The translations under genes were made by a program, and so were the position numbers. DNA of 64,000 nt from Macrostomum lignano (lineage: Eukaryota). Location of the stretch: the NCBI GenBank assembly GCA_002269645.1, contig NIVC01001070.1:58492-122491 (forward strand), written 5' to 3'. The notes beneath the pieces were generated by a model that was not told the origin of the DNA, ran no database searches, and was given only the letters and a program-made list of their open reading frames with translations. The stretch's first letter is position 1. Each line of letters starts with the position of its first letter. Shown piece by piece: positions 18,841-63,275 of this stretch.

Positions 18841-21398
18841 TGTTGTAACCCGGGTCGGCTTGGGTGCCCAGTCCCGAGTACAATATATATTATATGTGAT
18901 ATAACAGGCGTTGTGACGCTCTGTCTGTACTTTTATGAATACGACGAGCAGGCGTGGCGACGCTCTGCGATAATAATTCGATCCCTCTGGTGTTGTGACA
19001 CTCAGAGTTCACGCTGCGGCTCGAGGTGTGGTGACACTCTCGAGTGCTTCTATTCTCTATACCGTAGGGCGTACGCAATATATATGGTAAACGGTACCGT
19101 ACTACAGAAGCTATATGGTCTCCCGGCGTTATGACGCTCTGGCAAGAATTCGGCCTAGCAAGCTTCCCGAAAAGAAAGGACTCAAACAGCAGGCGGCTTA
19201 CCAGTGGCCAGATGACTGTTCACCGTTTATTATTCGCAGGTCTCAAGCGCAGTTTCCGACTTCTTCTTAATTCTCCAAGACTCTTCTCAATTAGGCTATT
19301 GTGTTTCTTTTATCGAAGTGGCTAATGTTGCTGTTTCTTTTATCCAAGTAGCTAATGTTGCTGTTTCTTTTATCGAAGTAGCTAATGTTGCTGTTTCTTT
19401 TATCGAAGTAGCTAATGTTGCTGTTTCTTTTATCGAAGTAGCTAATGTTGCTGTTTCTTTTATCCAAGTAGCTAATGTTGCTGTTTCTTTTATCGAAGTA
19501 GCTAATGTTGCTGTTTCTTTTATCGAAGTAGCTAATGTTGCTGTTTCTTTTATCGAAGTAGCTAATGTTGCTGTTTCTTTTATCGAAGTGGCTAATGTTG
19601 CTGTTTCTTTTATCGAAGTAGCTAATGTTGCTGTTTCTTTTATCGAAGTAGCTAATGTTGCTGTTTCTTTTATCGAAGTAGCTAATGTTGCTGTTTCTTT
19701 TATCGAAGTAGCTAATGTTGCTGTTTCTTTTATCGAAGTAGCTAATGTTGCTGTTTCTTTTATCGAAGTGGCTAATGTTGCTGTTTCTTTTATCGAAGTA
19801 GCTAATGTTGCTGTTTCTTTTATCCAAGTAGCTAATGTTGCTGTTTCTTTTATCGAAGTAGCTAATGTTGCTGTTTCTTTTATCGAAGTGGCTAATGTTG
19901 CTGTTTCTTTTATCGAAGTAGCTAATGTTGCTGTTTCTTTTATCCAAGTAGCTAATGTTGCTGTTTCTTTTATCGAAGTAGCTAATGTTGCTGTTTCTTT
20001 TATCGAAGTAGCTAATGTTGCTGTTTCTTTTATCGAAGTAGCTAATGTTGCTGTTTCTTTTATCGAAGTGGCTAATGTTGCTGTTTCTTTTATCCAAGTA
20101 GCTAATGTTGCTGTTTCTTTTATCCAAGTAGCTAATGTTGCTGTTTCTTTTATCGAAGTAGCTAATGTTGCTGTTTCTTTTATCGAAGTAGCTAATGTTG
20201 CTGTTTCTTTTATCGAAGTAGCTAATGTTGCTGTTTCTTTTATCCAAGTAGCTAATGTTGCTGTTTCTTTTATCCAAGTAGCTAATGTTGCTGTTTCTTT
20301 TTATCGAAGTGGCTAATGTTGCTGTTTCTTTTATCGAAGTAGCTAATGTTGCTGTTTCTTTTATCGAAGTAGCTAATGTTGCTGTTTCTTTTATCGAAGT
20401 GGCTAATGTTGCTGTTTCTTTTATCGAAGTAGCTAATGTTGCTGTTTCTTTTATCGAAGTAGCTAATGTTGCTGTTTCTTTTATCCAAGTAGCTAATGTT
20501 GCTGTTTCTTTTATCGAAGTAGCTAATGTTGCTGTTTCTTTTATCGAAGTGGCTAATGTTGCTGTTTCTTTTATCGAAGTAGCTAATGTTGCTGTTTCTT
20601 TTATCCAAGTAGCTAATGTTGCTGTTTCTTTTATCGAAGTAGCTAATGTTGCTGTTTCTTTTATCGAAGTAGCTAATGTTGCTGTTTCTTTTATCGAAGT
20701 AGCTAATGTTGCTGTTTCTTTTATCGAAGTGGCTAATGTTGCTGTTTCTTTTATCCAAGTAGCTAATGTTGCTGTTTCTTTTATCGAAGTAGCTAATGTT
20801 GCTGTTTCTTTTATCGAAGTAGCTAATGTTGCTGTTTCTTTTATCGAAGTAGCTAATGTTGCTGTTTCTTTTATCGAAGTAGCTAATGTTGCTGTTTCTT
20901 TTATCCAAGTAGCTAATGTTGCTGTTTCTTTTATCGAAGTAGCTAATGTTGCTGTTTCTTTTATCCAAGTAGCTAATGTTGCTGTTTCTTTTATCGAAGT
21001 AGCTAATGTTGCTGTTTCTTTTATCGAAGTAGCTAATGTTGCTGTTTCTTTTATCAAAACACCAAAACACAAAAAGCACGCAGGAGGTGGGCAAGAGCCA
21101 GAGTCGCACCATAAATAGCACCCAAACCCTGGGGCAGACGGCCCCACCGGCTAAGCTCACCAAAACAAACCACGCCGGCCAGCTAATCAAAACCCCGCCT
21201 AAGGGGGGGAGGGGCAGCACCCGCGCCAAAGCTGGCCCGGCCGCAGCCAACCAGCCCTGAGCACGGGGCAGGGGCACGGCTGGGGAGGGGCACGCGCAAA
21301 GCCCGGCCGGCGGCCAAACCCTGCCACGCCTGCCAACCCCCCCAACCAGCCCCAAAGTGCAACGCGCCCTGCCAACTGACAAGGGCGCATGCACTACA
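18841..21398 (-). repeat. Gypsy 3' LTR (2558 bp) containing an internal 30-bp array
   Basis: Minus strand starts TGTAGTG right after the PPT and ends TTACAACA. 18841-19301 matches 28975-29435, and 21056-21398 matches 40388-40730. Confidence 0.92.
19302..21055. repeat. 30-bp satellite array inside the 3' LTR, about 58 units
   Basis: Unit GATAAAAGAAACAGCAACATTAGCTACTTC (minus strand) with C/G and CTA/CCA variants. Confidence 0.97.
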
Positions 21399-21410
21399 CC
21401 CTCCCCTCCT
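21399..21410 (-). promoter_or_regulatory. Gypsy polypurine tract
   Basis: AGGAGGGGAGGG immediately before the TG of the 3' LTR. Confidence 0.88.
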
Positions 21411-21618: not shown

Positions 21619-23109
21619 TCAAAGCTGGCGCCACAGAAAACCATCGCAGGTGGCCGGCAGGACGCGCAGGTGGCCGGCAGGAAGCGCAGATGGCCGGCAG
21701 GAAGTGCAGATGGCCGGCAGGGCACGCAGGTGGCCGGGCGGGACGCGCAGGTGGCCGGCAGGACGCGCAAGTGGCCGGCAGGACACGCAGGTGGCCGGCA
21801 CGCGCAGGTGCCGGCAGGACGCGCAAGTGGCCGGCAGGACACGCAGGTGGCCGGCAGGAAGTGCAGATGGCCGGCAGGGCACGCAGGTGGCCGGCAGGAA
21901 GCGCAGATGGCCGGGCGGAAAGCGCAGGTTGCCGACGCAGAAGCCGGCAGGAAGCGCACGTGGCCGCCGCAGAAGCCGGCAGGAAGCGCAGGTGGCCGTC
22001 GCAGAAGCCGGCAGGAAGCGCAGGTGGCCGCCGCAGAAGCCGCTGAGCCATTCCCCCAGGAAGCTTGACCCCACTAGCAAGCAAATAAACCCATACAGTA
22101 CGAGCGTAACAACATACATACAAGTAAGCAGAAAATACAGTATGAATCGGAACTGGGCACCCCAGCGAACCCGAAGTCCAGGGAGACCGACGCAGCTTTT
22201 CAGGACCTCGAGCAGCCTGCCGGGCCGGCGCAAACCGAACAGCGGGATGAGCTCGTGACAGAGCTGTCGGACGAAACAATCAAAACTCTGCCTAGACCAG
22301 TAACGGCGGCCTGCTCTCTGACGCTTTACCGGAGCGATATCTCTGCGGATGAAGAACAACGCCTGCAGCAGGACCATTGACAGTGCGCTCCTCGGTTCTC
22401 GCTGCGAGTCTCGAAACAGCCGTCTCATAGCCGTGAGCACTGACACGATTCCGTCCGACTGTCCAGCCAAAATATGCTTCATCAAACGATGGCGGAGCTG
22501 ACGCGCAGCTGCCGATAACGACAGCTTTTCATCATCCCATATTGCTCCCGACGCGCGATGTGAGACAACCTCCTTGCTTTCCGGTACATCGATCTCCATA
22601 GCTTCTGACTCACTACTTCCGGAGGAGCCATCCGATGCCAGCAACTCGTCTTCTTCTTCTGTGTCGATGCTACACTCATCCGACTCCTCGCTCTCATCGT
22701 CGTCCGAGATTAGAATGTAGCCATCCGCTTCGTAATCGTTCCTCTGTCCCTGTCTCCCCTGCCTGAGACCAGCTTCCTTGCGCTGAGCTTCTTCAACTTC
22801 TCGCCTTTGCTGTACTCCCTCTTCGATGTCCGCCGGCATTCTTACACCAGTAGGAGGTATGAACGTCATTGCGAAGGTTACAGCCTCGTCATACGGGATT
22901 GATTTATCGCCCAACTGGTCGTACATCGCTCGGCGATATGGACACGATAGAATTCTACCAGCAGTCTCAATTTCTTGGAAACGGCGTCCTGCGAGTTCCT
23001 TGTCCGGGTGCTTGTCCGGGTGCCAGAAGAGCGCTAGCTGTCGATAGACTCGCCTGATCTCGGCACGTTCGGCTGTGTGTCCGACTTGGAGGACAGCGTA
23101 CAAATCCAT
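21619..23109 (-). CDS. Retrotransposon-borne J-domain (DnaJ/Hsp40-like) accessory ORF; C-terminal extent uncertain
   Basis: MDLYAVLQV...EIRRVYRQLALFWHPDKHPD...FQEI...ILS.P.RRAMYDQLG is a complete J-domain with HPD. It is intronless and lies between the integrase stop and the PPT. Confidence 0.85.
   Translation of the reverse strand: MDLYAVLQVGHTAERAEIRRVYRQLALFWHPDKHPDKELAGRRFQEIETAGRILSCPYRRAMYDQLGDKSIPYDEAVTFAMTFIPPTGVRMPADIEEGVQQRREVEEAQRKEAGLRQGRQGQRNDYEADGYILISDDDESEESDECSIDTEEEDELLASDGSSGSSESEAMEIDVPESKEVVSHRASGAIWDDEKLSLSAAARQLRHRLMKHILAGQSDGIVSVLTAMRRLFRDSQREPRSALSMVLLQALFFIRRDIAPVKRQRAGRRYWSRQSFDCFVRQLCHELIPLFGLRRPGRLLEVLKSCVGLPGLRVRWGAQFRFILYFLLTCMYVVTLVLYGFICLLVGSSFLGEWLSGFCGGHLRFLPASATATCASCRLLRRPRALPAGFCVGNLRFPPGHLRFLPATCVPCRPSALPAGHLRVLPATCASCRHLRVPATCVSCRPLARPAGHLRVPPGHLRALPAICTSCRPSALPAGHLRVLPATCDGFLWRQL
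21646..22045. repeat. GC-rich tandem repeats (about 20 bp, then about 32 bp units) in the Gypsy 3' region
   Basis: GCAGGTGGCCGGCAGGACGC-type units, followed by CGCAGAAGCCGGCAGGAAGCGCAGGTGGCCGC-type units. Confidence 0.9.
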
Positions 23110-23532
23110 CTGCAAAGCAACGTACTCAAACCTGCGACACACTGTCCCTGACTCCAGATTCTACTCCTGCTCCCCTCTTGCCAGAGCGTCATCTCCTCGG
23201 ACCGTGGCCCGCGGTACCCTGCATCGTAAAGTCCCAGCGCAAATTCGAGTTGTCACCGGATGCCATTCCGAATACCCTCCACCGATGCATAGATTTTGTA
23301 GGCAAAATTTGATTCTCGTCAAAACTTCGATGAAGATGCGATTAAAATGACTTAATGACGCATTAACGAATTTCTTGAATGACGCATTGGCGAACTGCTC
23401 GTACTCACGATGAATGATGCATTGATGAAGTACTCGTATTTATGATGAATGACGCATTCGCGAAATATTTTTCTGGCTTTTAACGATAATCGCATATGAA
23501 ACTGATGAGACTTCACGATGACGAGTAACCCA

Positions 23533-24590
23533 TTAGAATGTCACTGGCTGGCCGTAGCGATCCGGCGGCCGTCGCAACCTTCCGGACCTTCGAGGCTCAG
23601 GTGCAGCTTCCACCGGGTTATGAGTAGGCTGCGGGTCGTCAACCAACTCCATCTGCTCTTCCAGCACCTCGGCGACTTCCTCAGCGTCCTGTGGCGGCAT
23701 CAGTTGAGGCCGAGTCCAAGTCTCGCCTTCCGCATCTGCCTCCGAGTCCGTCTCGTCGACCACTTCCGGCGGTGCCGCGGTCCTAACTGGTGTTTCCAGG
23801 GCGGCCGGTCGAGCGAACTTCCGGAGGTTGTTGAAGTGGACGAACTTCGACTTTTTACGATTTGACGGGTTTTCCACTTTGAAGAGCACCTCGGATCTTC
23901 TTTCGAGCACCTTCACTGGGCCGAGCCAGCTTACGTGAAACTTTGCGGCTTCGTCTGGTTTCAGGGCGGGGCTGTAGACGAAGACATGGTCACCCTCCTG
24001 AATATCGGATCCTCGGGTTCTTTTATCGTACTGGTCCTTCTGTCGCCGCTGATAAGTGTTCAACTGCTGTCGAGCAGCGCGATGAGCTGTCTGCAATTTG
24101 TCTTCTAGCTCCTTGACGAAATTTACATGCGAATCGACAGGCTGTGGCGGCTGGTCAGTCAAGTCTATCGGTAGGCGCATCTCCGTGCCATAGACCATGT
24201 AGTGGGGAGTATAACCCGTTGCTCGATGCACGCTTGATCGGTACGCCATTAACGCAGAGCTGACGAATTCTTCCCAGTCGTTTCGTCCTGAGTCCTCTAG
24301 GCAGCACTTGAGGATGGATTTTAAACTTTTATTGAAGTTTTCTACTTGTCCATTTCCGCTCGGATGATAAGCTGTTGTTCTGGACTTGCGGATCTCGAGT
24401 ATCCTGCACATTTCGCGCATCACTTGCGATTCGAAGTTTCTTCCTTGGTCGCTGTGCAAAGTACTCGGACACCCATGCTGGCTAATCCATCGATTGAAAA
24501 GCGCCCTTGCCACCGTCCTTGCCTTCTGGTTGCGAAGCGGGTACGCGTCAGGCCACTTCGTAAACGAATCTTGGACTGTCAGGAGATAAT
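23533..24590 (-). CDS. Gypsy integrase core and C-terminus, separated from pol by a 1-nt frameshift near 24588
   Basis: Restoring one base gives GN.YLLTVQDSFTKWPDAYPL. Catalytic D, D and E are in DIVGP, SDQG and VENFN. Confidence 0.9.
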
Positions 24591-27500
24591 GTTTCCAGCC
24601 TTACTCCGCGGTAGCGGCCCGACAATGTCCATCATGACGCAATCGAATGGTGCTGCGAATGTCAACGGTTGCAGGGGTGCTCGGTTTCGCTTGCCCGGCT
24701 TTGACTTGCAGCAGGTGGCACAACCGCGAATATATTCTTCAATGGCACGAGACAATCCTGGACGCCAGTAGCGCTGAAGCACTTTAAATTTTGTCTTCGC
24801 AAAGCCCATGTGGCCACCTCCCACTCCCTCGTGTAGGGTTTTCAAGATACGATCCAATGCCTTTCGTGGCAGCACCATTTGATACTCATCGCGCCTGTCT
24901 TTGTGTCTCACAAGGAGCACGTTCTCTTGCAGCACCAGGTCGTCTTTTCGAGTCCAGACGGCTCTAGCCAGTGGACTCCAAGCTGTCTCGCTTTTATCTG
25001 GAACTGGGTTTGAGCCAAGCGCTTCCTTTACTGTTCTCAAATCGTCGTCTTGATCCTGCTCGCTTGCCAGATTGCCGGCTGAGAATCGTTCAAATTCGAC
25101 TGCATTTAGTCCTTCTGGATGCTGCGCACATGCCGGGCATGTCTCCGCTCCGAAATGTCTCCGTACTGGCTTCCTCGACATTGCGTCCGCGTTGCCATGC
25201 GATCGACCTGGTCTGTGAACGATGCGGTACTGAAATGGAGCCAACTTCTCCAACCAGCGAGCAACCTGTCCCTCGGCGTCACTGAAGTTTTTTAACCATT
25301 GCAGGCTGCTGTGGTCCGTTCGCAGACAGAACGCTTTTCCAAGCAGATAATATCTGAACTTCATGATGAAAGTCACAACCGCTAGTAGTTCTAAACGAGT
25401 CGTAGAATAGTTGCGTTCGGCTTGATTTAGTGTCTTGGACCCATAGGCGATCACTCGTTCTGCTCCATCTGGCTGGACTTGAGAAAGTACCGCTCCTATG
25501 CCCATCTTCGAACTGCCATCAGTATCGAGGATAAACTCTCCGGCATCCGGGGAGAAATCCGGATGAGCCATAACCTCTGAACTTGTCATTCGTTCCTTCA
25601 ATGTTTTGAACGCCAGCTGCTGTTCCGTTTTCCATTCAAACTTTGCGTCTTTTGTTGTCAATCGAGTTAGAGGCGCTGCTATTGCGGCGAAATCTTTAAT
25701 AAACTTTCTGTAATAGCCACACAGGCCCAAGAATGAATGCAGCTCCGTCGAGGATCGCGGTGTTGGCCAGTTCTTCACTTCTTGAACTTTCTCCTCATCG
25801 GTACTGATGCCAGCAGCCGACAGCGTGTGACCGAGAAATTTCACTTGCTTTTGCAAAAAGTGACACTTCTGGGGCTTCAGGCACAAATTTGCTTGCCGCA
25901 ACTTGCTGAATATTTCCTCCAGTCTTCTCAGGTGTTCATCCACGTCGGTTGACCAAACCAGTAGATCGTCGATGTAGACGAGACAGGTTTTCCACATCTG
26001 CTTGTCCAGAACGGCTGCCATCAACCTGGTGAATGTTGCTGGGCTGTTCACTAAGCCGAACGGCATAACCTTCCATCGAAATTGTCCGCGATGCGGCACT
26101 GCAAACGCCGTCTTGTCCTGATCCTGAGGTCTCACCCCTACTTGCCAAAACCCGCTGTGAAGGTCCATTGTCGAGAAGATCTTGGCTCCGTGTACTGCCT
26201 CCAGCGCATCATCGACCCTCGGCATCGGCACTGCATCCTTGACGGTGACCTCATTCAACTTCCGATAATCGACGCACATCCTCATTTCCCCTGATTTCTT
26301 CTTTACGCACACCAAAGGAAAGCACCATGGTGACTGTGCTTCTTCGATCTGCCCCTTTTCCAGCAACTCGTTGACTTGACGATCTACTTCTGGCTGTAAG
26401 TGGGGAGGCAGACGACGCGGTGGGATCTTGATTGGGCGCGCATTCTCGGTGTTAATTTCATGCTCCACCACGGTAGTTAACTTGCTTGAAGTCTGCTTGG
26501 TCGTGAACACATCGCTGTAACTCCGGACAAGGATTCTAAATTCTTCGTCTTCTTTCGTCGACAGTCCACAGTCGCCGTACGAGTTTGGTAGCAAGTCTGC
26601 TTCCGAAGGGCTGTTGCTGCCTTGGACCTTCGGCTCTTCCTGTGAATCGTCTCCTGACTCTACGGCTAAGAGCTTGATGGTGTTCAACGGTTCGGTGGAT
26701 TCTAGGGGGCAGAACCACCCGAGCGTACAACCTTGGCGAATTCTGACTGGCTCTTCCGTGATATTGATGAGTCGAGTCGGCAGACGGCTGCCGCTATTTG
26801 GGATCACTAAGGCCTTAGCAAGCCAGCGGCCAGCTGCCAAATCGTTCGCTCCGAGATTCTCAGTTAGACCGACACACCCTCTGTTCCGTCGTCCTTTGCT
26901 CTCCAGCCTTGCTGACAGAACTGCTTGATGACCTGGCGGTATTGTGCTGGACCTTGTCGCCAAAATTCTGCAAACGATCGGGCGCTCAGCTTGCCATCGG
27001 AACGGGATTGCAGTGTCCTGCACTGAAAAGACAGCTGTCTTGTAGTCGATGACGCAACTGTTGTCCCTGCAGAAGTCGGATCCCAATACCAGTTGGTACT
27101 TCACTCCGCTGACTACCAAGGCTGGAGTATCTATTACTTTATCAGCGATTGACAGTCGCAACAGGACTGTTCTCTCGATTTCGATCGGGCTGCCGTTTGC
27201 TAAGCTAACATAGCCTTCAGCACCGGCCAAATCTCTGACGCTCTGTTTCGGCATACTTTGGTAGGCTTCCCGTGAGATAATGGTGCAGGAAGCTCCCGAG
27301 TCCACTAGCGCGTTCACCCTCCGCCCTGCGATTGAGGCCGTAACATATATCGACGCAGGATTGATTTGAATTGACTGAGGTGCGTTGACGGTGATTGGGC
27401 GCTGCGACTGTGCAAAACCGGCTAGTTGATGGTGAGGTGCAGTACCGGACGCTGGAGGCTGATGAGGCACTGTAACGGACACTGGATGCTGATGAGACTC

Positions 27501-27848
27501 AGTACCGGACACTGTATGCTGATGAGGCGCAGTACCGGACACTGGAGGCTGATGAGGCACTGTACCGGACACTGGATGCTGATGAGACGCTGTACCGGAC
27601 ACTGGATGCTGATGAGGCGCAGTACCGGACACTGGATGCTGATGAGGCGCAGTACCGGACACTGGAGGCTGATGAGATGAAGTACCGGACACTGGATGCT
27701 GATGAGGCGCAGTACCGGACACTGGAGGCTGATGAGACGCAGTACCGGGCGTTTGATGATGATGAGATGAGATGACGACTTGTTCGGAGGCTGACGAATT
27801 GCAGGGGCTCACTTGCCTCCAGCTGGTGGGCCCCTCTTGCCTTTTCCC
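24579..27848 (-). CDS. Gypsy pol: protease, reverse transcriptase, RNase H, integrase zinc finger
   Basis: ALVDSGAS, CVDYRKLN, MPFGL, YIDD, FILDTDGS, ELLAVV, TDHSSL, GGHMG...CATC. Confidence 0.95.
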   Translation of the reverse strand, partial: GKRQEGPTSWRQVSPCNSSASEQVVISSHHHQTPGTASHQPPVSGTAPHQHPVSGTSSHQPPVSGTAPHQHPVSGTAPHQHPVSGTASHQHPVSGTVPHQPPVSGTAPHQHTVSGTESHQHPVSVTVPHQPPASGTAPHHQLAGFAQSQRPITVNAPQSIQINPASIYVTASIAGRRVNALVDSGASCTIISREAYQSMPKQSVRDLAGAEGYVSLANGSPIEIERTVLLRLSIADKVIDTPALVVSGVKYQLVLGSDFCRDNSCVIDYKTAVFSVQDTAIPFRWQAERPIVCRILATRSSTIPPGHQAVLSARLESKGRRNRGCVGLTENLGANDLAAGRWLAKALVIPNSGSRLPTRLINITEEPVRIRQGCTLGWFCPLESTEPLNTIKLLAVESGDDSQEEPKVQGSNSPSEADLLPNSYGDCGLSTKEDEEFRILVRSYSDVFTTKQTSSKLTTVVEHEINTENARPIKIPPRRLPPHLQPEVDRQVNELLEKGQIEEAQSPWCFPLVCVKKKSGEMRMCVDYRKLNEVTVKDAVPMPRVDDALEAVHGAKIFSTMDLHSGFWQVGVRPQDQDKTAFAVPHRGQFRWKVMPFGLVNSPATFTRLMAAVLDKQMWKTCLVYIDDLLVWSTDVDEHLRRLEEIFSKLRQANLCLKPQKCHFLQKQVKFLGHTLSAAGISTDEEKVQEVKNWPTPRSSTELHSFLGLCGYYRKFIKDFAAIAAPLTRLTTKDAKFEWKTEQQLAFKTLKERMTSSEVMAHPDFSPDAGEFILDTDGSSKMGIGAVLSQVQPDGAERVIAYGSKTLNQAERNYSTTRLELLAVVTFIMKFRYYLLGKAFCLRTDHSSLQWLKNFSDAEGQVARWLEKLAPFQYRIVHRPGRSHGNADAMSRKPVRRHFGAETCPACAQHPEGLNAVEFERFSAGNLASEQDQDDDLRTVKEALGSNPVPDKSETAWSPLARAVWTRKDDLVLQENVLLVRHKDRRDEYQMVLPRKALDRILKTLHEGVGGGHMGFAKTKFKVLQRYWRPGLSRAIEEYIRGCATCCKSKPGKRNRAPLQPLTFAAPFDCVMMDIVGPLPRSKAGNIIS
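27440..27750 (-). repeat. In-frame 30-bp coding repeat, about 10 units, upstream of the protease
   Basis: Encodes (HQHPVSGTAP)n-like decamers in the pol frame. Confidence 0.9.
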
Positions 27849-28729
27849 GGCTTTGGGCACTGGAATGAGAGATGGCCTATCTCCCCGCAGTTGTAGCACT
27901 TGACACCGCTACGCTGCTTCGAGCTGGACGGAGCCGCCTGCTTGGATTGTTGCTTGTCTTGAAGGCCGGGTTCGGGCGGCTCCTGCTGGCCCTGCTGCAT
28001 CTGCTCCATCCGTCGGATCTTTTCTTCCATTTCCTTTACTTTTTGACGCAGTTGCCGTAGCTCCTCGTCTTTGCCGGTGTCACCTGTCGACGTTTCGGTG
28101 GCAAAGGCATTCAGCCCAGCCCTGGGTCTGGCTTTGGACTGGGTCGAAGACGCCTTCTGGGCTGCTTCAAGTTGTCTTACTGTTCGAATGGCATCGGTGA
28201 GGTTGGCCGGCTGCTGCAGGTACAGTCTTTCTCGGACAGTGTCGGTTACTCGAACGCCTTTTAGAAATCTGTCTTTCGCCAGCTCTGTCCTGGTGTCGGC
28301 ATCCGCGGTGGGGAAGGCATTGCGCACCAACTCCAGCAGCTCGTCCCCGTAGGTCTCCACAGACTCCTTGTCTAGCTGATCTCGATTCGATAATTCAAAA
28401 CGGTAGTCCTGGGCTGTTCTGTTCATGGTGAACCGCGCCAGCAGTGCATCCGTGAATTCCCCGTACTCGATGTCGTCTGCCAAGTCCAGCTTATCAACGG
28501 CAGCGTAGGCTGTTGTGAGGTCGAGTAGGCCGATCAGGTGCGGCCGCCTGGCTTCTTCTTCTATACCGACAGCCTCGCAGTACTCGTTGAAACTCTGCAG
28601 CCATAGGCTGAAATTCATCGTTGGTATGTACTTGGGCGGCTTCGAGAGTCGTGGCGCTGCTCGGTCGGCGTTGGCTCTGAGGCGCGCAGCCAGCGCATCG
28701 ATCAGTTGGTCCATAGCTTGATCACCCAT
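27809..28729 (-). CDS. Gypsy gag
   Basis: Capsid-like PPKY...FSLWLQSF and C-terminal CCHC knuckle CYNCGEIGHLSFQC. Confidence 0.92.
   Translation of the reverse strand: MGDQAMDQLIDALAARLRANADRAAPRLSKPPKYIPTMNFSLWLQSFNEYCEAVGIEEEARRPHLIGLLDLTTAYAAVDKLDLADDIEYGEFTDALLARFTMNRTAQDYRFELSNRDQLDKESVETYGDELLELVRNAFPTADADTRTELAKDRFLKGVRVTDTVRERLYLQQPANLTDAIRTVRQLEAAQKASSTQSKARPRAGLNAFATETSTGDTGKDEELRQLRQKVKEMEEKIRRMEQMQQGQQEPPEPGLQDKQQSKQAAPSSSKQRSGVKCYNCGEIGHLSFQCPKPGKGKRGPPAGGK
27842..27848 (-). promoter_or_regulatory. Candidate -1 ribosomal frameshift site for gag-pol
   Basis: G GGA AAA heptamer in the gag frame, and pol is in the -1 frame. An AGGGGC...GCCCCT stem starts 6 nt downstream. Confidence 0.7.
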
Positions 28730-28953
28730 GGCCGAAGTCACTGAATACCGTTGCTACTCTTTACTCTGAGGTGGTGATAGCTATCAATCTCTGATAACCA
28801 ATCAGTTGCCTGTCACCGTGATCAATGTCTTTTGCGGTAGGGCAATAGCCGCAGGCGATAAGCAAAAGTCGTTTTAATAAGAAAAAACGCTCACAATATG
28901 ACAGCAATTTTCATAGAAAGCAACTGCGCCGACTTTCAATCTTTGGGGACAGG

Positions 28954-28971
28954 GTCCCTGTTCGGGCGCCA
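28954..28971 (-). promoter_or_regulatory. Gypsy primer-binding site (tRNA-Lys)
   Basis: TGGCGCCCGAACAGGGAC, 3 nt from the LTR end; the classic tRNA-Lys PBS. Confidence 0.92.
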
Positions 28972-28974
28972 ATT

Positions 28975-29435
28975 TGTTGTAACCCGGGTCGGCTTGGGTG
29001 CCCAGTCCCGAGTACAATATATATTATATGTGATATAACAGGCGTTGTGACGCTCTGTCTGTACTTTTATGAATACGACGAGCAGGCGTGGCGACGCTCT
29101 GCGATAATAATTCGATCCCTCTGGTGTTGTGACACTCAGAGTTCACGCTGCGGCTCGAGGTGTGGTGACACTCTCGAGTGCTTCTATTCTCTATACCGTA
29201 GGGCGTACGCAATATATATGGTAAACGGTACCGTACTACAGAAGCTATATGGTCTCCCGGCGTTATGACGCTCTGGCAAGAATTCGGCCTAGCAAGCTTC
29301 CCGAAAAGAAAGGACTCAAACAGCAGGCGGCTTACCAGTGGCCAGATGACTGTTCACCGTTTATTATTCGCAGGTCTCAAGCGCAGTTTCCGACTTCTTC
29401 TTAATTCTCCAAGACTCTTCTCAATTAGGCTATTG
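28975..29435 (-). repeat. Gypsy 5' LTR, PBS-proximal part (copy 1)
   Basis: Matches 18841-19301 with no difference seen by eye. Confidence 0.92.
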
Positions 29436-29700
29436 TGTTTCTTTTATCGAAGTGGCTAATGTTGCTGTTTCTTTTATCCAAGTAGCTAATGTTGCTGTTT
29501 CTTTTATCGAAGTGGCTAATGTTGCTGTTTCTTTTATCGAAGTAGCTAATGTTGCTGTTTCTTTTATCGAAGTGGCTAATGTTGCTGTTTCTTTTATCGA
29601 AGTAGCTAATGTTGCTGTTTCTTTTATCGAAGTGGCTAATGTTGCTGTTTCTTTTATCGAAGTAGCTAATGTTGCTGTTTCTTTTATCGAAGTAGCTAAT
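29436..29700. repeat. 30-bp satellite, 9 units
   Basis: Same unit, lying between the Gypsy LTR part and the BEL LTR. Confidence 0.96.
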
Positions 29701-29993: not shown

Positions 29994-30011
29994 TGGTAGC
30001 AGAGCGTGGTT
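29994..30011 (+). promoter_or_regulatory. BEL primer-binding site, initiator tRNA-Met-like
   Basis: TGGTAGCAGAGCGTGGTT, 3 nt after the LTR. TGGTAGCAGAG is complementary to the animal tRNA-iMet 3' end. Confidence 0.75.
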
Positions 30012-30076
30012 GGACAAGCCTAAATTACCACTGACGTGGCAAGCAATAGAATCCTACTGTGAAACGAAGGACCAAG

Positions 30077-40387: not shown

Positions 40388-40754
40388 TGTAATGCATGCG
40401 CCCTTGTCAGTTGGCAGGGCGCGTTGCACTTTGGGGCTGGTTGGGGGGGTTGGCGGGCGTGGCAGGGTTTGGTCGCCGGCCGGGCTTTGCGCGTGCCCCT
40501 CCCCAGCCGTGCCCCTGCCCCGTGCTCAGGGCTGGTTGGCTGCGGCCGGGCCAGCTTTGGCGCGGGTGCTGCCCCTCCCCATCTTAGGCGGGGTTTTGAT
40601 TGGCTGGGCCGGCGTGGTTTGTTTTGGTGAGCTTAGCCGGTGGGGCCGTCTGCCCCAGGGTTTGGGTGCTATTTATGGTGCGACTCTGGCTCTTGCCCAC
40701 CTCCTGCGTGCTTTTTGTGTTTTGGTGTGCTCCGAGAGTGCAAGCGCGAGACCT
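40388..40754 (+). repeat. Gypsy 5' LTR U3-like part (copy 2)
   Basis: Starts TGTAATGCATGCGCCC and matches the reverse complement of 21056-21398 with about 7 differences. Confidence 0.9.
40586..40676 (+). promoter_or_regulatory. Candidate LTR promoter: GC box, inverted CCAAT, TATA-like motif
   Basis: AGGCGGGG at 40586, ATTGG at 40599 and TATTTAT at 40670. Motif match only. Confidence 0.45.
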
Positions 40755-43700
40755 GATAAAAGAAACAGCAACATTAGCTACTTCGATAAAAGAAACAGCA
40801 ACATTAGCTACTTGGATAAAAGAAACAGCAACATTAGCTACTTGGATAAAAGAAACAGCAACATTAGCCACTTCGATAAAAGAAACAGCAACATTAGCCA
40901 CTTCGATAAAAGAAACAGCAACATTAGCTACTTCGATAAAAGAAACAGCAACATTAGCTACTTCGATAAAAGAAACAGCAACATTAGCTACTTGGATAAA
41001 AGAAACAGCAACATTAGCTACTTCGATAAAAGAAACAGCAACATTAGCTACTTCGATAAAAGAAACAGCAACATTAGCTACTTCGATAAAAGAAACAGCA
41101 ACATTAGCTACTTCGATAAAAGAAACAGCAACATTAGCTACTTCGATAAAAGAAACAGCAACATTAGCTACTTCGATAAAAGAAACAGCAACATTAGCCA
41201 CTTCGATAAAAGAAACAGCAACATTAGCCACTTCGATAAAAGAAACAGCAACATTAGCTACTTGGATAAAAGAAACAGCAACATTAGCTACTTCGATAAA
41301 AGAAACAGCAACATTAGCTACTTCGATAAAAGAAACAGCAACATTAGCTACTTCGATAAAAGAAACAGCAACATTAGCTACTTCGATAAAAGAAACAGCA
41401 ACATTAGCTACTTCGATAAAAGAAACAGCAACATTAGCTACTTGGATCAAAGAAACAGCAACATTAGCTACTTGGATAAAAGAAACAGCAACATTAGCTA
41501 CTTCGATAAAAGAAACAGCAACATTAGCTACTTGGATAAAAGAAACAGCAACATTAGCTACTTGGATAAAAGAAACAGCAACATTAGCTACTTGGATAAA
41601 AGAAACAGCAACATTAGCTACTTCGATAAAAGAAACAGCAACATTAGCTACTTGGATAAAAGAAACAGCAACATTAGCTACTTGGATAAAAGAAACAGCA
41701 ACATTAGCCACTTCGATAAAAGAAACAGCAACATTAGCTACTTCGATAAAAGAAACAGCAACATTAGCTACTTCGATAAAAGAAACAGCAACATTAGCTA
41801 CTTCGATAAAAGAAACAGCAACATTAGCCACTTCGATAAAAGAAACAGCAACATTAGCTACTTGATAAAAGAAACAGCAACATTAGCTACTTGATAAAAG
41901 AAACAGCAACATTAGCTACTTCGATAAAAGAAACAGCAACATTAGCCACTTCGATAAAAGAAACAGCAACATTAGCTACTTCGATAAAAGAAACAGCAAC
42001 ATTAGCTACTTCGATAAAAGAAACAGCAACATTAGCTACTTCGATAAAAGAAACAGCAACATTAGCTACTTCGATAAAAGAAACAGCAACATTAGCTACT
42101 TCGATAAAAGAAACAGCAACATTAGCTACTTCGATAAAAGAAACAGCAACATTAGCCACTTCGATAAAAGAAACAGCAACATTAGCCACTTCGATAAAAG
42201 AAACAGCAACATTAGCTACTTGGATAAAAGAAACAGCAACATTAGCTACTTCGATAAAAGAAACAGCAACATTAGCTACTTCGATAAAAGAAACAGCAAC
42301 ATTAGCTACTTCGATAAAAGAAACAGCAACATTAGCTACTTCGATAAAAGAAACAGCAACATTAGCTACTTCGATAAAAGAAACAGCAACATTAGCTACT
42401 TCGATAAAAGAAACAGCAACATTAGCTACTTCGATAAAAGAAACAGCAACATTAGCTACTTCGATAAAAGAAACAGCAACATTAGCTACTTGGATAAAAG
42501 AAACAGCAACATTAGCTACTTCGATAAAAGAAACAGCAACATTAGCTACTTCGATAAAAGAAACAGCAACATTAGCTACTTCGATAAAAGAAACAGCAAC
42601 ATTAGCTACTTGATAAAAGAAACAGCAACATTAGCTACTTGATAAAAGAAACAGCAACATTAGCTACTTCGATAAAAGAAACAGCAACATTAGCTACTTC
42701 GATAAAAGAAACAGCAACATTAGCTACTTGATAAAAGAAACAGCAACATTAGCTACTTCGATAAAAGAAACAGCAACATTAGCTACTTCGATAAAAGAAA
42801 CAGCAACATTAGCTACTTCGATAAAAGAAACAGCAACATTAGCTACTTCGATAAAAGAAACAGCAACATTAGCTACTTCGATAAAAGAAACAGCAACATT
42901 AGCTACTTCGATAAAAGAAACAGCAACATTAGCTACTTCGATAAAAGAAACAGCAACATTAGCTACTTCGATAAAAGAAACAGCAACATTAGCTACTTCG
43001 ATAAAAGAAACAGCAACATTAGCTACTTCGATAAAAGAAACAGCAACATTAGCTACTTCGATAAAAGAAACAGCAACATTAGCTACTTCGATAAAAGAAA
43101 CAGCAACATTAGCTACTTCGATAAAAGAAACAGCAACATTAGCTACTTCGATAAAAGAAACAGCAACATTAGCTACTTCGATAAAAGAAACAGCAACATT
43201 AGCTACTTCGATAAAAGAAACAGCAACATTAGCTACTTCGATAAAAGAAACAGCAACATTAGCTACTTCGATAAAAGAAACAGCAACATTAGCTACTTCG
43301 ATAAAAGAAACAGCAACATTAGCTACTTGATAAAAGAAACAGCAACATTAGCTACTTCGATAAAAGAAACAGCAACATTAGCTACTTCGATAAAAGAAAC
43401 AGCAACATTAGCTACTTCGATAAAAGAAACAGCAACATTAGCTACTTCGATAAAAGAAACAGCAACATTAGCTACTTCGATAAAAGAAACAGCAACATTA
43501 GCTACTTCGATAAAAGAAACAGCAACATTAGCTACTTCGATAAAAGAAACAGCAACATTAGCTACTTCGATAAAAGAAACAGCAACATTAGCTACTTCGA
43601 TAAAAGAAACAGCAACATTAGCTACTTCGATAAAAGAAACAGCAACATTAGCTACTTCGATAAAAGAAACAGCAACATTAGCTACTTCGATAAAAGAAAC

Positions 43701-46700
43701 AGCAACATTAGCTACTTCGATAAAAGAAACAGCAACATTAGCTACTTCGATAAAAGAAACAGCAACATTAGCTACTTCGATAAAAGAAACAGCAACATTA
43801 GCTACTTCGATAAAAGAAACAGCAACATTAGCTACTTCGATAAAAGAAACAGCAACATTAGCTACTTCGATAAAAGAAACAGCAACATTAGCTACTTCGA
43901 TAAAAGAAACAGCAACATTAGCTACTTCGATAAAAGAAACAGCAACATTAGCTACTTCGATAAAAGAAACAGCAACATTAGCTACTTCGATAAAAGAAAC
44001 AGCAACATTAGCTACTTCGATAAAAGAAACAGCAACATTAGCTACTTCGATAAAAGAAACAGCAACATTAGCTACTTCGATAAAAGAAACAGCAACATTA
44101 GCTACTTCGATAAAAGAAACAGCAACATTAGCTACTTCGATAAAAGAAACAGCAACATTAGCTACTTCGATAAAAGAAACAGCAACATTAGCTACTTCGA
44201 TAAAAGAAACAGCAACATTAGCTACTTCGATAAAAGAAACAGCAACATTAGCTACTTCGATAAAAGAAACAGCAACATTAGCTACTTCGATAAAAGAAAC
44301 AGCAACATTAGCTACTTCGATAAAAGAAACAGCAACATTAGCTACTTCGATAAAAGAAACAGCAACATTAGCTACTTCGATAAAAGAAACAGCAACATTA
44401 GCTACTTCGATAAAAGAAACAGCAACATTAGCTACTTCGATAAAAGAAACAGCAACATTAGCTACTTCGATAAAAGAAACAGCAACATTAGCTACTTCGA
44501 TAAAAGAAACAGCAACATTAGCTACTTCGATAAAAGAAACAGCAACATTAGCTACTTCGATAAAAGAAACAGCAACATTAGCTACTTCGATAAAAGAAAC
44601 AGCAACATTAGCTACTTCGATAAAAGAAACAGCAACATTAGCTACTTCGATAAAAGAAACAGCAACATTAGCTACTTCGATAAAAGAAACAGCAACATTA
44701 GCTACTTCGATAAAAGAAACAGCAACATTAGCTACTTCGATAAAAGAAACAGCAACATTAGCTACTTCGATAAAAGAAACAGCAACATTAGCTACTTCGA
44801 TAAAAGAAACAGCAACATTAGCTACTTCGATAAAAGAAACAGCAACATTAGCTACTTCGATAAAAGAAACAGCAACATTAGCTACTTCGATAAAAGAAAC
44901 AGCAACATTAGCTACTTCGATAAAAGAAACAGCAACATTAGCTACTTCGATAAAAGAAACAGCAACATTAGCTACTTCGATAAAAGAAACAGCAACATTA
45001 GCTACTTCGATAAAAGAAACAGCAACATTAGCTACTTCGATAAAAGAAACAGCAACATTAGCTACTTCGATAAAAGAAACAGCAACATTAGCTACTTCGA
45101 TAAAAGAAACAGCAACATTAGCTACTTCGATAAAAGAAACAGCAACATTAGCTACTTCGATAAAAGAAACAGCAACATTAGCTACTTCGATAAAAGAAAC
45201 AGCAACATTAGCTACTTCGATAAAAGAAACAGCAACATTAGCTACTTCGATAAAAGAAACAGCAACATTAGCTACTTCGATAAAAGAAACAGCAACATTA
45301 GCTACTTCGATAAAAGAAACAGCAACATTAGCTACTTCGATAAAAGAAACAGCAACATTAGCTACTTCGATAAAAGAAACAGCAACATTAGCTACTTCGA
45401 TAAAAGAAACAGCAACATTAGCTACTTCGATAAAAGAAACAGCAACATTAGCTACTTCGATAAAAGAAACAGCAACATTAGCTACTTCGATAAAAGAAAC
45501 AGCAACATTAGCTACTTCGATAAAAGAAACAGCAACATTAGCTACTTCGATAAAAGAAACAGCAACATTAGCTACTTCGATAAAAGAAACAGCAACATTA
45601 GCTACTTCGATAAAAGAAACAGCAACATTAGCTACTTCGATAAAAGAAACAGCAACATTAGCTACTTCGATAAAAGAAACAGCAACATTAGCTACTTCGA
45701 TAAAAGAAACAGCAACATTAGCTACTTCGATAAAAGAAACAGCAACATTAGCTACTTCGATAAAAGAAACAGCAACATTAGCTACTTCGATAAAAGAAAC
45801 AGCAACATTAGCTACTTCGATAAAAGAAACAGCAACATTAGCTACTTCGATAAAAGAAACAGCAACATTAGCTACTTCGATAAAAGAAACAGCAACATTA
45901 GCTACTTCGATAAAAGAAACAGCAACATTAGCTACTTCGATAAAAGAAACAGCAACATTAGCTACTTCGATAAAAGAAACAGCAACATTAGCTACTTCGA
46001 TAAAAGAAACAGCAACATTAGCTACTTCGATAAAAGAAACAGCAACATTAGCTACTTCGATAAAAGAAACAGCAACATTAGCTACTTCGATAAAAGAAAC
46101 AGCAACATTAGCTACTTCGATAAAAGAAACAGCAACATTAGCTACTTCGATAAAAGAAACAGCAACATTAGCTACTTCGATAAAAGAAACAGCAACATTA
46201 GCTACTTCGATAAAAGAAACAGCAACATTAGCTACTTCGATAAAAGAAACAGCAACATTAGCTACTTCGATAAAAGAAACAGCAACATTAGCTACTTCGA
46301 TAAAAGAAACAGCAACATTAGCTACTTCGATAAAAGAAACAGCAACATTAGCTACTTCGATAAAAGAAACAGCAACATTAGCTACTTCGATAAAAGAAAC
46401 AGCAACATTAGCTACTTCGATAAAAGAAACAGCAACATTAGCTACTTCGATAAAAGAAACAGCAACATTAGCTACTTCGATAAAAGAAACAGCAACATTA
46501 GCTACTTCGATAAAAGAAACAGCAACATTAGCTACTTCGATAAAAGAAACAGCAACATTAGCTACTTCGATAAAAGAAACAGCAACATTAGCTACTTCGA
46601 TAAAAGAAACAGCAACATTAGCTACTTCGATAAAAGAAACAGCAACATTAGCTACTTCGATAAAAGAAACAGCAACATTAGCTACTTCGATAAAAGAAAC

Positions 46701-49700
46701 AGCAACATTAGCTACTTCGATAAAAGAAACAGCAACATTAGCTACTTCGATAAAAGAAACAGCAACATTAGCTACTTCGATAAAAGAAACAGCAACATTA
46801 GCTACTTCGATAAAAGAAACAGCAACATTAGCTACTTCGATAAAAGAAACAGCAACATTAGCTACTTGATAAAAGAAACAGCAACATTAGCTACTTCGAT
46901 AAAAGAAACAGCAACATTAGCTACTTCGATAAAAGAAACAGCAACATTAGCTACTTCGATAAAAGAAACAGCAACATTAGCTACTTCGATAAAAGAAACA
47001 GCAACATTAGCTACTTCGATAAAAGAAACAGCAACATTAGCTACTTCGATAAAAGAAACAGCAACATTAGCTACTTCGATAAAAGAAACAGCAACATTAG
47101 CTACTTCGATAAAAGAAACAGCAACATTAGCTACTTGATAAAAGAAACAGCAACATTAGCTACTTCGATAAAAGAAACAGCAACATTAGCTACTTCGATA
47201 AAAGAAACAGCAACATTAGCTACTTCGATAAAAGAAACAGCAACATTAGCTACTTCGATAAAAGAAACAGCAACATTAGCTACTTCGATAAAAGAAACAG
47301 CAACATTAGCTACTTCGATAAAAGAAACAGCAACATTAGCTACTTCGATAAAAGAAACAGCAACATTAGCTACTTCGATAAAAGAAACAGCAACATTAGC
47401 TACTTCGATAAAAGAAACAGCAACATTAGCTACTTCGATAAAAGAAACAGCAACATTAGCTACTTCGATAAAAGAAACAGCAACATTAGCTACTTCGATA
47501 AAAGAAACAGCAACATTAGCTACTTCGATAAAAGAAACAGCAACATTAGCTACTTCGATAAAAGAAACAGCAACATTAGCTACTTCGATAAAAGAAACAG
47601 CAACATTAGCTACTTCGATAAAAGAAACAGCAACATTAGCTACTTCGATAAAAGAAACAGCAACATTAGCTACTTCGATAAAAGAAACAGCAACATTAGC
47701 TACTTCGATAAAAGAAACAGCAACATTAGCTACTTCGATAAAAGAAACAGCAACATTAGCTACTTCGATAAAAGAAACAGCAACATTAGCTACTTCGATA
47801 AAAGAAACAGCAACATTAGCTACTTCGATAAAAGAAACAGCAACATTAGCTACTTCGATAAAAGAAACAGCAACATTAGCTACTTCGATAAAAGAAACAG
47901 CAACATTAGCTACTTGATAAAAGAAACAGCAACATTAGCTACTTCGATAAAAGAAACAGCAACATTAGCTACTTCGATAAAAGAAACAGCAACATTAGCT
48001 ACTTCGATAAAAGAAACAGCAACATTAGCTACTTCGATAAAAGAAACAGCAACATTAGCTACTTCGATAAAAGAAACAGCAACATTAGCTACTTCGATAA
48101 AAGAAACAGCAACATTAGCTACTTCGATAAAAGAAACAGCAACATTAGCTACTTCGATAAAAGAAACAGCAACATTAGCTACTTGATAAAAGAAACAGCA
48201 ACATTAGCTACTTCGATAAAAGAAACAGCAACATTAGCTACTTCGATAAAAGAAACAGCAACATTAGCTACTTCGATAAAAGAAACAGCAACATTAGCTA
48301 CTTCGATAAAAGAAACAGCAACATTAGCTACTTCGATAAAAGAAACAGCAACATTAGCTACTTGATAAAAGAAACAGCAACATTAGCTACTTCGATAAAA
48401 GAAACAGCAACATTAGCTACTTCGATAAAAGAAACAGCAACATTAGCTACTTCGATAAAAGAAACAGCAACATTAGCTACTTCGATAAAAGAAACAGCAA
48501 CATTAGCTACTTCGATAAAAGAAACAGCAACATTAGCTACTTCGATAAAAGAAACAGCAACATTAGCTACTTCGATAAAAGAAACAGCAACATTAGCTAC
48601 TTCGATAAAAGAAACAGCAACATTAGCTACTTCGATAAAAGAAACAGCAACATTAGCTACTTCGATAAAAGAAACAGCAACATTAGCTACTTCGATAAAA
48701 GAAACAGCAACATTAGCTACTTCGATAAAAGAAACAGCAACATTAGCTACTTCGATAAAAGAAACAGCAACATTAGCTACTTCGATAAAAGAAACAGCAA
48801 CATTAGCTACTTCGATAAAAGAAACAGCAACATTAGCTACTTGATAAAAGAAACAGCAACATTAGCTACTTCGATAAAAGAAACAGCAACATTAGCTACT
48901 TCGATAAAAGAAACAGCAACATTAGCTACTTCGATAAAAGAAACAGCAACATTAGCTACTTCGATAAAAGAAACAGCAACATTAGCTACTTCGATAAAAG
49001 AAACAGCAACATTAGCTACTTCGATAAAAGAAACAGCAACATTAGCTACTTCGATAAAAGAAACAGCAACATTAGCTACTTGATAAAAGAAACAGCAACA
49101 TTAGCTACTTCGATAAAAGAAACAGCAACATTAGCTACTTCGATAAAAGAAACAGCAACATTAGCTACTTCGATAAAAGAAACAGCAACATTAGCTACTT
49201 CGATAAAAGAAACAGCAACATTAGCTACTTGATAAAAGAAACAGCAACATTAGCTACTTCGATAAAAGAAACAGCAACATTAGCTACTTCGATAAAAGAA
49301 ACAGCAACATTAGCTACTTCGATAAAAGAAACAGCAACATTAGCTACTTCGATAAAAGAAACAGCAACATTAGCTACTTCGATAAAAGAAACAGCAACAT
49401 TAGCTACTTCGATAAAAGAAACAGCAACATTAGCTACTTCGATAAAAGAAACAGCAACATTAGCTACTTCGATAAAAGAAACAGCAACATTAGCTACTTG
49501 GATAAAAGAAACAGCAACATTAGCTACTTCGATAAAAGAAACAGCAACATTAGCTACTTCGATAAAAGAAACAGCAACATTAGCTACTTCGATAAAAGAA
49601 ACAGCAACATTAGCTACTTCGATAAAAGAAACAGCAACATTAGCTACTTCGATAAAAGAAACAGCAACATTAGCTACTTCGATAAAAGAAACAGCAACAT

Positions 49701-50539
49701 TAGCTACTTGATAAAAGAAACAGCAACATTAGCTACTTGATAAAAGAAACAGCAACATTAGCTACTTCGATAAAAGAAACAGCAACATTAGCTACTTCGA
49801 TAAAAGAAACAGCAACATTAGCTACTTCGATAAAAGAAACAGCAACATTAGCTACTTGATAAAAGAAACAGCAACATTAGCTACTTCGATAAAAGAAACA
49901 GCAACATTAGCCACTTCGATAAAAGAAACAGCAACATTAGCCACTTCGATAAAAGAAACAGCAACATTAGCTACTTCGATAAAAGAAACAGCAACATTAG
50001 CTACTTCGATAAAAGAAACAGCAACATTAGCTACTTCGATAAAAGAAACAGCAACATTAGCTACTTCGATAAAAGAAACAGCAACATTAGCTACTTGATA
50101 AAAGAAACAGCAACATTAGCTACTTCGATAAAAGAAACAGCAACATTAGCTACTTCGATAAAAGAAACAGCAACATTAGCTACTTGGATAAAAGAAACAG
50201 CAACATTAGCTACTTCGATAAAAGAAACAGCAACATTAGCTACTTCGATAAAAGAAACAGCAACATTAGCTACTTGGATAAAAGAAACAGCAACATTAGC
50301 TACTTCGATAAAAGAAACAGCAACATTAGCTACTTCGATAAAAGAAACAGCAACATTAGCTACTTGGATAAAAGAAACAGCAACATTAGCTACTTCGATA
50401 AAAGAAACAGCAACATTAGCTACTTGGATAAAAGAAACAGCAACATTAGCTACTTCGATAAAAGAAACAGCAACATTAGCTACTTCGATAAAAGAAACAG
50501 CAACATTAGCTACTTCGATAAAAGAAACAGCAACATTAG
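40755..50539. repeat. 30-bp satellite, about 326 units (right arm, inverted relative to the left arm)
   Basis: Continuous GATAAAAGAAACAGCAACATTAGCTACTTC array on the plus strand. Confidence 0.97.
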
Positions 50540-62306: not shown

Positions 62307-62570
62307 ATTAGCTACTTCGATAAAAGAAACAGCAACATTAGCTACTTCGATAAAAGAAACAGCAACATTAGCCACTTCGATAAAAGAAACAGCAACATTA
62401 GCTACTTCGATAAAAGAAACAGCAACATTAGCCACTTCGATAAAAGAAACAGCAACATTAGCTACTTCGATAAAAGAAACAGCAACATTAGCCACTTCGA
62501 TAAAAGAAACAGCAACATTAGCTACTTGGATAAAAGAAACAGCAACATTAGCCACTTCGATAAAGAAACA
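62307..62570. repeat. 30-bp satellite, 9 units, mirror of 29436-29700
   Basis: Same order of variant units as the left arm. Confidence 0.96.
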
Positions 62571-63031
62571 CAATAGCCTAATTGAGAAGAGTCTTGGAGA
62601 ATTAAGAAGAAGTCGGAAACTGCGCTTGAGACCTGCGAATAATAAACGGTGAACAGTCATCTGGCCACTGGTAAGCCGCCTGCTGTTTGAGTCCTTTCTT
62701 TTCGGGAAGCTTGCTAGGCCGAATTCTTGCCAGAGCGTCATAACGCCGGGAGACCATATAGCTTCTGTAGTACGGTACCGTTTACCATATATATTGCGTA
62801 CGCCCTACGGTATAGAGAATAGAAGCACTCGAGAGTGTCACCACACCTCGAGCCGCAGCGTGAACTCTGAGTGTCACAACACCAGAGGGATCGAATTATT
62901 ATCGCAGAGCGTCGCCACGCCTGCTCGTCGTATTCATAAAAGTACAGACAGAGCGTCACAACGCCTGTTATATCACATATAATATATATTGTACTCGGGA
63001 CTGGGCACCCAAGCCGACCCGGGTTACAACA
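62571..63031 (+). repeat. Gypsy 5' LTR, PBS-proximal part (copy 2), with AATAAA at 62641
   Basis: Reverse complement of 28975-29435; ends TTACAACA. Confidence 0.92.
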
Positions 63032-63034
63032 AAT

Positions 63035-63052
63035 TGGCGCCCGAACAGGGAC
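63035..63052 (+). promoter_or_regulatory. Gypsy primer-binding site (tRNA-Lys), copy 2
   Basis: TGGCGCCCGAACAGGGAC. Confidence 0.92.
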
Positions 63053-63275
63053 CCTGTCCCCAAAGATTGAAAGTCGGCGCAGTTGCTTTCTATGAAAATT
63101 GCTGTCATATTGTGAGCGTTTTTCTTATTAAAACGACTTTTGCTTATCGCCTGCGGCTATTGCCCTACCGCAAAAGACATTGATCACGGTGACAGGCAAC
63201 TGATTGGTTATCAGAGATTGATAGCTATCACCACCTCAGAGTAAAGAGTAGCAACGGTATTCAGTGACTTCGGCC

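Follow-up and report, generated by a model that had tools for sequence, protein, structure and literature searches.

A J-domain third open reading frame behind a conserved candidate splice acceptor in gypsy-type retrotransposons of Macrostomum lignano

Introduction

In Drosophila gypsy, the start codon of env is created by the splice (PMC2585583; 10.1101/2023.08.03.551782). LTR elements of bdelloid rotifers carry third open reading frames (ORF3s) that do not encode envelopes (GDSL esterase, DEDDy exonuclease, coiled coil) and are typically expressed from spliced messages (PMC5408684), and the gypsy-type element Cer1 of Caenorhabditis elegans forms a spliced accessory mRNA, partly SL1-capped, for the nuclear regulatory protein CERV (PMC3315495, PMC10309623). 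In foamy virus, 5' polyadenylation is suppressed through U1 by a donor in the LTR (PMC3694450). For all sources cited here, statements refer to the portions of the text that were available. Polyomavirus T-antigen is an example of a mobile genome that brings its own HPD J-domain and aims Hsp70 at host complexes.

Here, a 64,000-nt stretch of M. lignano DNA (contig NIVC01001070.1, positions 58,492 to 122,491; 'the window') was analysed. A Ty3/gypsy LTR retrotransposon lies on its minus strand and contains an ORF3 with a J-domain and a candidate splice acceptor at its start. A preliminary description of the locus had proposed that this ORF is expressed from an env-style spliced subgenomic mRNA with a donor in the leader between primer-binding site (PBS) and gag.

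Materials and methods

Searching the genome at the protein level yielded 121 matches; 47 stretches were taken first and 16 more later. The start region was read at 41 loci, and 10 host DnaJ genes and 2 loci without a start were set aside. Families were numbered F1 (window family) to F9. Donors in element leaders were counted in nine families, the leaders of F4 and F9 being unreadable and left out. All statements on reading frame and start context are hand counts. For the RNA check, contigs of four runs out of 24 listed, each from a different study and presumed to be RNA, were placed on window positions 22060-29430.

Results

Anatomy of the window element

The element was assigned to Ty3/gypsy by the presence of LTRs, PBS (which we take to be of the Lys-tRNA type) and polypurine tract (PPT), and by gag followed by PR-RT-RH-IN in the order of the Pfam matches (Table 1). 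ORF3 is situated downstream of the integrase, as the third ORF is in errantiviruses, and was found after the integrase in other copies wherever pol was preserved. The poly(A) signal and the candidate donor of the 5' LTR recur in the 3' LTR, the donor at 19201. At least 24 near-full matches to the window element were present in the genome at 98-100% identity. ORF3 was 315 aa long in 14 of 26 copies read, and the longer frame of the window copy extends into repeats. The window copy is probably not the expressed one, because its 5' U3 is missing.

Several repeats accompany the element. A 30-bp array occupies window positions 19302-21055, 29436-29700, 34758-40207, 40755-50539, 55598-57252 and 62307-62570, with about 327 units in one LTR; it is located downstream of the TATA-like box, hence probably transcribed, and has no ATG on its sense strand. 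Three BEL/Pao elements, 99.9% identical to each other (29701-34757, 50540-55597 and 57253-62306), are all inserted in this array of the gypsy LTRs, a possible target preference; in the second gypsy copy the array is expanded and interrupted by two of them. Both gypsy copies, which stand head to head, adjoin a 23-bp satellite (18004-18839 and 40208-40383), and another LTR end (L173) adjoins a different short tandem repeat. A separate 30-bp coding repeat of 10.5 units (27433-27748) lies at the start of the pol frame and overlaps the gag end region.

Table 1. Features of the gypsy copies in the window (position 1 is the first letter of the window).
Feature	Position	Strand	Basis or remark
3' splice acceptor (...TTGCAG), directly before the ORF3 ATG	23110..23124	-	AG at 23111-23110; kept in 10/10 family rows
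ORF3, J-domain protein, 496 aa in window copy	21619..23109	-	ORF list, Pfam
J-domain, residues 2-64, HPD at residues 30-32	22918..23106	-	Pfam PF00226
Hydrophobic-Ser-acidic motif, residues 131-139	22693..22719	-	alignment rows F1, F2, F3, F4, F8
Five-helix C-terminal domain, common to all families	22189..22512	-	structure model, homology searches
Candidate LTR donor GTAAG, starts at 29335	29330..29335	-	counterpart in 10/10 LTR types
AATAAA poly(A) signal in LTR	29360..29365	-	read from sequence
Leader donor-like GTGAGC, possible second donor	28889..28894	-	counterpart in 5/9 families
Leader GTAAAG	28759..28764	-	conserved in F1/F2 alone
Primer-binding site (PBS)	28954..28971	-	read from sequence
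gag with CCHC knuckle	27809..28729	-	ORF and Pfam
pol (PR-RT-RH-IN), frameshift in integrase region of window copy	23533..27908	-	Pfam
Polypurine tract (PPT)	21399..21410	-	read from sequence
3' LTR, 2.56 kb	18841..21398	-	sequence comparison
TATA-like box in U3 of 3' LTR	21117-21111	-	
30-bp tandem array in 3' LTR	19302-21055	-	
5' LTR remnant, U3 missing, array interrupted by BEL/Pao element (29701-34757)	28975..29700	-	
Second copy, opposite orientation: 5' LTR, leader, gag start	40388..64000	+	LTR donor at 62671

Families carrying ORF3

Reverse transcriptases of the ORF3-carrying elements fell into five lineages (F1/F2, F3, F5/F6, F7 and F8), 54-64% identical to the window RT; in the tree, which held no reference-clade sequences, each of the five was supported and their grouping as one clade was not resolved. 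F2 is a recombinant sister of the window family: both share leader, gag and pol closely and differ in U3/R and ORF3 (L061, L063 and L172 compared with the window). Mosaics of the same kind were seen in F3a/F3b and F8a/F8b, resembling module exchange by recombination. A metagenome scan with P0009 gave no matches.

Pairwise dN/dS of ORF3 was 0.09-0.35 at a dS of 1.15-2.14 in eight of nine comparisons, the ninth being saturated, and the HPD motif is kept across families. On this evidence, the earlier suggestion that ORF3 is functional rather than a passenger holds.

The ORF3 protein

ORF3 matched Pfam DnaJ (E 1.2e-17); the four-helix J fold with its HPD was found, and the predicted fold superimposes on known J-domains at about 1 A rmsd. 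Behind the J-domain come a helical extension, an acidic linker and a five-helix domain (pLDDT 87). The linker contains a conserved hydrophobic-Ser-acidic motif, which presumably resembles a SUMO-interacting motif (SIM). DnaJ was the sole Pfam match and the model consists of a J-domain and a soluble helical domain, so that of the 'env-style' label only the proposed expression route stands; the protein is not an envelope. Two lineages carry additional parts. In F5, a chromodomain (E 1.4e-12) is placed between J-domain and helical domain (L083:7994-8977) and occurs likewise in the public protein P0010; in F8, a TatD-like region is appended, with E 1e-6 in the deletion derivative L140. In L140 (7871-8413) and the further F8 deletion derivatives L141, L142 and L145, only this TatD-like tail of ORF3 is left, by eye apparently without the usual catalytic motifs.

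The helical domain found seven proteins at E < 1e-10 among 1.84 billion representatives, and those read look like ORF3; a UniRef protein nearly identical to that of the window element is labelled Macrostomum lignano. The best matches in a fold search with the C-terminal domain were helical bundles (Z up to 7.9, under the meaningful level), and a comparison with viral structures gave no match at E 0.001. Against DnaJ-X (PF14308), the Atlas score was 0.77, under the lead level of 0.9, with no Pfam match at E 1. A protein word search gave three weak J-domain matches only.

The acceptor at the start of ORF3

The acceptor was found where the preliminary description had placed it, as a 21-mer at 23124-23104 of the minus strand with AG at 23111-23110 and ATG at 23109. 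It had been called pyrimidine-rich; the AG does end exactly at the ATG, but only 7 of the 11 bases before the CAG are pyrimidines, which is weak. By arithmetic, about 1 in 16 ATGs should be preceded by AG, and a single copy is not beyond chance. Conservation across copies, named earlier as a check, was found at two depths. CAG precedes the ATG in all 26 close loci holding the start (27 examined), which says little because the copies are 98-100% identical. Diverged families put the acceptor above chance: all 10 family rows end in AG, 7 of them in TGCAG, and AG was present at the start region in 29/29 element loci, while alignment of the 52 bases further upstream did not exceed that of shuffled sequences for 44 of 45 family pairs (p < 0.02 in the remaining pair). 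Judged from these alignments, acceptor and ORF3 are under selection across families, because the AG is kept next to unalignable flanks and dN/dS of ORF3 is low (0.09-0.35).

The distance between AG and reading frame differs among families. AG stands directly before the ATG in F1-F5 and one F6 copy, 1 nt further upstream in the other F6 copy and 16 nt upstream of the J-domain ATG in F7. It is also 16 nt upstream in F9, which has no ATG at the domain start, and in F8 the acceptor is followed by TG and no ATG (all 11 distinct F8 places at which the own start region was read). Without an ATG at the domain start, F8 and F9 would need an upstream exon.

These positions bear on the reading that no splicing takes place and that the AG is a relic of a DnaJ exon captured from the host or belongs to an internal promoter, ORF3 being translated from an unspliced internal transcript. 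The host DnaJ loci L096, L102 and L104 indeed have acceptors 6-15 nt before their ATG, and the weak pyrimidine tract and the unbroken contigs described below fit as well. Between sister families, however, dS is at or beyond saturation and the flanks are unalignable, so that a neutral relic should have decayed, and F8 and F9 offer no ATG from which such a transcript could be read; this reading is therefore considered very improbable.

A candidate donor in the LTR

Donor-like sites had previously been listed in the leader, GTGAGC at 28894 and GTAAAG at 28764 with plus-strand mirrors at 63112 and 63241, and all four are present. As to their conservation, GTGAG occurs in 5 of 9 readable leaders (F1, F3a, F3b, F5 and F7; one of these leaders is only 36 nt long), but GTAAAG is confined to the window family and F2. 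A better conserved site had been missed: GTAAG is found in the 3' part of all 10 LTR types (F1, F2, F3a, F3b, F4, F5, F6, F7, F8a and F8b), with GTGAG at the corresponding place of F9 (one LTR, decayed copy L122). This LTR donor stands upstream of the PBS at a distance of about 240-460 nt. It usually follows closely on a poly(A)-like hexamer; in the window family, it comes 25 nt after the poly(A) signal. The chance of GTAAG per 300 nt is about 0.25 by arithmetic, and GT[G/A]AG is the top donor motif of the host (PMC8629364). By eye, no such donor was seen in the 338-nt LTR of a published ORF3-less Gmr1/Osvaldo family of M. lignano (n = 1). The unrelated gypsy element L105, which is uninformative as a control, had by eye no GTAAG or GTGAG in 650 nt of LTR and one donor of this type in its leader.

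From these signals and their conservation, ORF3 is probably expressed from an LTR-to-ORF3 cis-spliced subgenomic mRNA. The transcript would start in the 5' LTR, and cis-splicing from the GTAAG donor (29335) to the acceptor before 23109 would remove about 6.2 kb and, with this intron, PBS, gag and pol. The spliced message would encode ORF3 alone and, because these parts are removed, could not be reverse-transcribed. We infer both the splice and the donor used from sequence signals and their conservation; the LTR donor could also be kept for U1-mediated poly(A) suppression without splicing.

The families whose ORF3 starts differently show what such a splice would make. F8 LTR donors are preceded by a final exon A in 7/7 and 17/17 pattern matches of two different LTR types (three further pattern matches of one type were set aside as an unrelated repeat), and joining this A to the TG behind the acceptor would create AUG. 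The fit is necessary but not improbable, because an A also ends the exon in F3a, F3b and F4, families with an ATG of their own (5/11 donors in all). In F7, an ATG precedes the LTR donor by 26 nt in 42/43 matches; adding the 16 nt from acceptor to J-domain ATG gives 42 nt, or 14 codons, which are in frame when counted by hand. The five codons preceding the J-domain ATG are conserved with F9. In the F9 LTR (decayed copy L122), the exon ATG lies 22 nt before the donor and is out of frame by one base, which counts against splicing from the LTR. The LTR exon of the F8 deletion derivatives is open for about 33 codons.

The alternative donor is GTGAGC at 28894, downstream of the PBS, from which ORF3 would be cis-spliced as insect errantivirus env is. 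Its presence in more than one family, including the one with the 36-nt leader, speaks for it, as does the position of errantivirus donors near gag in the available text of 10.1101/2023.08.03.551782. With the leader donor, 3 of 4 families having their own ATG would show a purine at position -3, compared with 2 of 7 families with the LTR donor (hand reading); the leader donor gives the better context in F1, F3a and F5. Start context was dropped as an argument for splicing in general and retained for this alternative alone. However, F2 and F6 (each read from a single decayed copy) lack the leader GTGAG, as do F8a and F8b, whose leaders have no donor able to make the start codon. Splicing from the leader donor is considered decidedly unlikely as an alternative, although the element may use both donors. 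With the leader donor, a short ATG frame further upstream in the window leader (28900-28917) would run out of frame into the start of ORF3.

Contigs of public sequencing runs

In all four runs, contigs extend without a break across acceptor, leader sites and LTR donor. They show no joint between these sites, and no loose end was found at 23110. Such contigs show unspliced sequence only and drop rare forms, and are thus silent on the absence or level of splicing. Loose ends joining LTR to flank were DNA-like or unspliced material. Among the F1 matches scored, there was no spliced retro-copy.

Spliced leader and leader DNA in LTRs

In M. lignano, 30% of genes are trans-spliced, with an enriched acceptor motif [T/C]TNCAG (PMC8629364). 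The 35-nt leader printed in that paper had 57 matches in the genome and none in a reversed control; at L159 and L161 it is followed by a donor as in an SL RNA gene, so that the host has such a gene. The leader and the UniRef label mentioned above both point to M. lignano as the host. Leader DNA was also found within F7 LTRs (6 loci listed and L153) and within the F2 LTR type, where copies are fresh, old or in tandem. One of the fresh copies is joined at the point where leader-free, position-matched LTRs have a preceding AG. The presence of old, fresh and tandem copies suggests more than one event in which genomic RNA carrying a trans-spliced leader was reverse-transcribed.

Leader copies in LTRs (L074:2101-2144, L074:9932-9975 and L152:9170-9216, further L148, L156, L163, L167, L170 and L172-L174) lie 45-60 nt upstream of the LTR donor. 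At L149, L151, L155, L157, L158, L160 and L164, the leader stands in front of a repeat that these loci have in common and that is unrelated to the LTRs described here; this is another repeat family with a captured leader.

ORF3 might be cut out like a downstream gene of an operon, gaining by trans-splicing the 35-nt leader that ends in AUG. Acceptors in 8 of the 10 family rows fit the host motif, the leader DNA in LTRs of two lineages indicates that element RNA meets the machinery, a 35-nt leader would not show in contigs, and the spliced Cer1 mRNA is SL1 trans-spliced (PMC3315495). Hand counts put the leader AUG in frame with ORF3 in F1-F5 and out of frame in F7, F8 and F9. Upstream of the first helix, F8 and F9 lack any other start codon; trans-splicing cannot be the general route, because these two families would be left without a start. 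An unpaired acceptor is stated as a requirement in the available text of PMC8629364, yet strong donors are present upstream of ORF3, and ORF3 follows the leader in none of 24 leader loci read (of the 57 matches). Trans-splicing to ORF3 is thus regarded as decidedly unlikely, although the 5' end of this element RNA may receive a leader in this way.

Discussion

Selection across five deep lineages, together with many young copies, means that ORF3 does something for the element. By its domains, ORF3 appears to be an Hsp70 co-chaperone module joined to targeting modules. A nuclear role is most likely, because the chromodomain and the SIM-like motif point there. ORF3 would bring Hsp70 to SUMO- or chromatin-bound host complexes and ease silencing or RNA retention of the element; that Hsp70 is recruited to remodel host silencing or RNA-retention complexes is put forward tentatively, as somewhat doubtful, and a role in particle or RT maturation is ranked next. 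Taken as a whole, the picture of a clade-encoded nuclear anti-silencing co-chaperone, in which a spliced ORF3 with a SUMO motif (in one lineage a chromodomain) brings Hsp70 to repressive complexes on the element while the genomic RNA is repeatedly leader-capped and copied into the LTR, is conceivable and rather doubtful. M. lignano is genetically tractable and its LTR elements respond to heat stress. In this animal, one can test directly if Hsp70 serves a retrotransposon in evading silencing or in assembly.

Expressing a third ORF by splicing is an established strategy. In the openly available literature covered by the search, no report of a J-domain protein as the third ORF of a retrotransposon was found; the main text of PMC12801592 does not mention DnaJ, J-domain, ORF or splicing, and the available text of PMC13524379 contains no reference to an element with a J-domain ORF. 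The Ty3/Mdg4 Gmr1/Osvaldo clade described in PMC12801592 lives in the same host, and its pol and promoter layout are alike by eye.

The element resembles insect errantiviruses in having ORF3 after the integrase, the subgenomic message being spliced there and predicted here. In errantiviruses the start codon is either created by splicing or comes with a short upstream peptide, varying by subclade, and F8, F7 and F1 may be compared with this range. The element is not an errantivirus, because its ORF3 is no envelope: the cargo is a soluble J-domain protein and not an F-type envelope, and the proposed donor, known here from splice signals, is within the LTR and not near gag (10.1101/2023.08.03.551782). 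With the bdelloid rotifer elements it shares a captured host-like domain as ORF3; no DnaJ or chaperone is mentioned for them in the available text, and here one scaffold gains a chromodomain or a TatD-like tail (PMC5408684).

Like Cer1 with its CERV message, the element is gypsy-type and lives in a trans-splicing host; the CERV exons, unlike ORF3, are carved from gag-pol (PMC3315495, PMC10309623). Genomic RNA of Cer1 is not trans-spliced, whereas leader DNA in the LTRs described here implies trans-spliced packaged RNA; these fossils would document, at the DNA level, trans-splicing of packaged retrotransposon RNA. As in foamy virus, the donor is within both LTRs and may be able to serve splicing and poly(A) control, but it is upstream of the poly(A) signal there and downstream here (PMC3694450).

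Polyomavirus differs in being a DNA virus, and the likeness of ORF3 to T-antigen drawn here is one of presumed function. If the anti-silencing reading is true, ORF3 would be an animal retrotransposon counterpart of the T-antigen J-domain.
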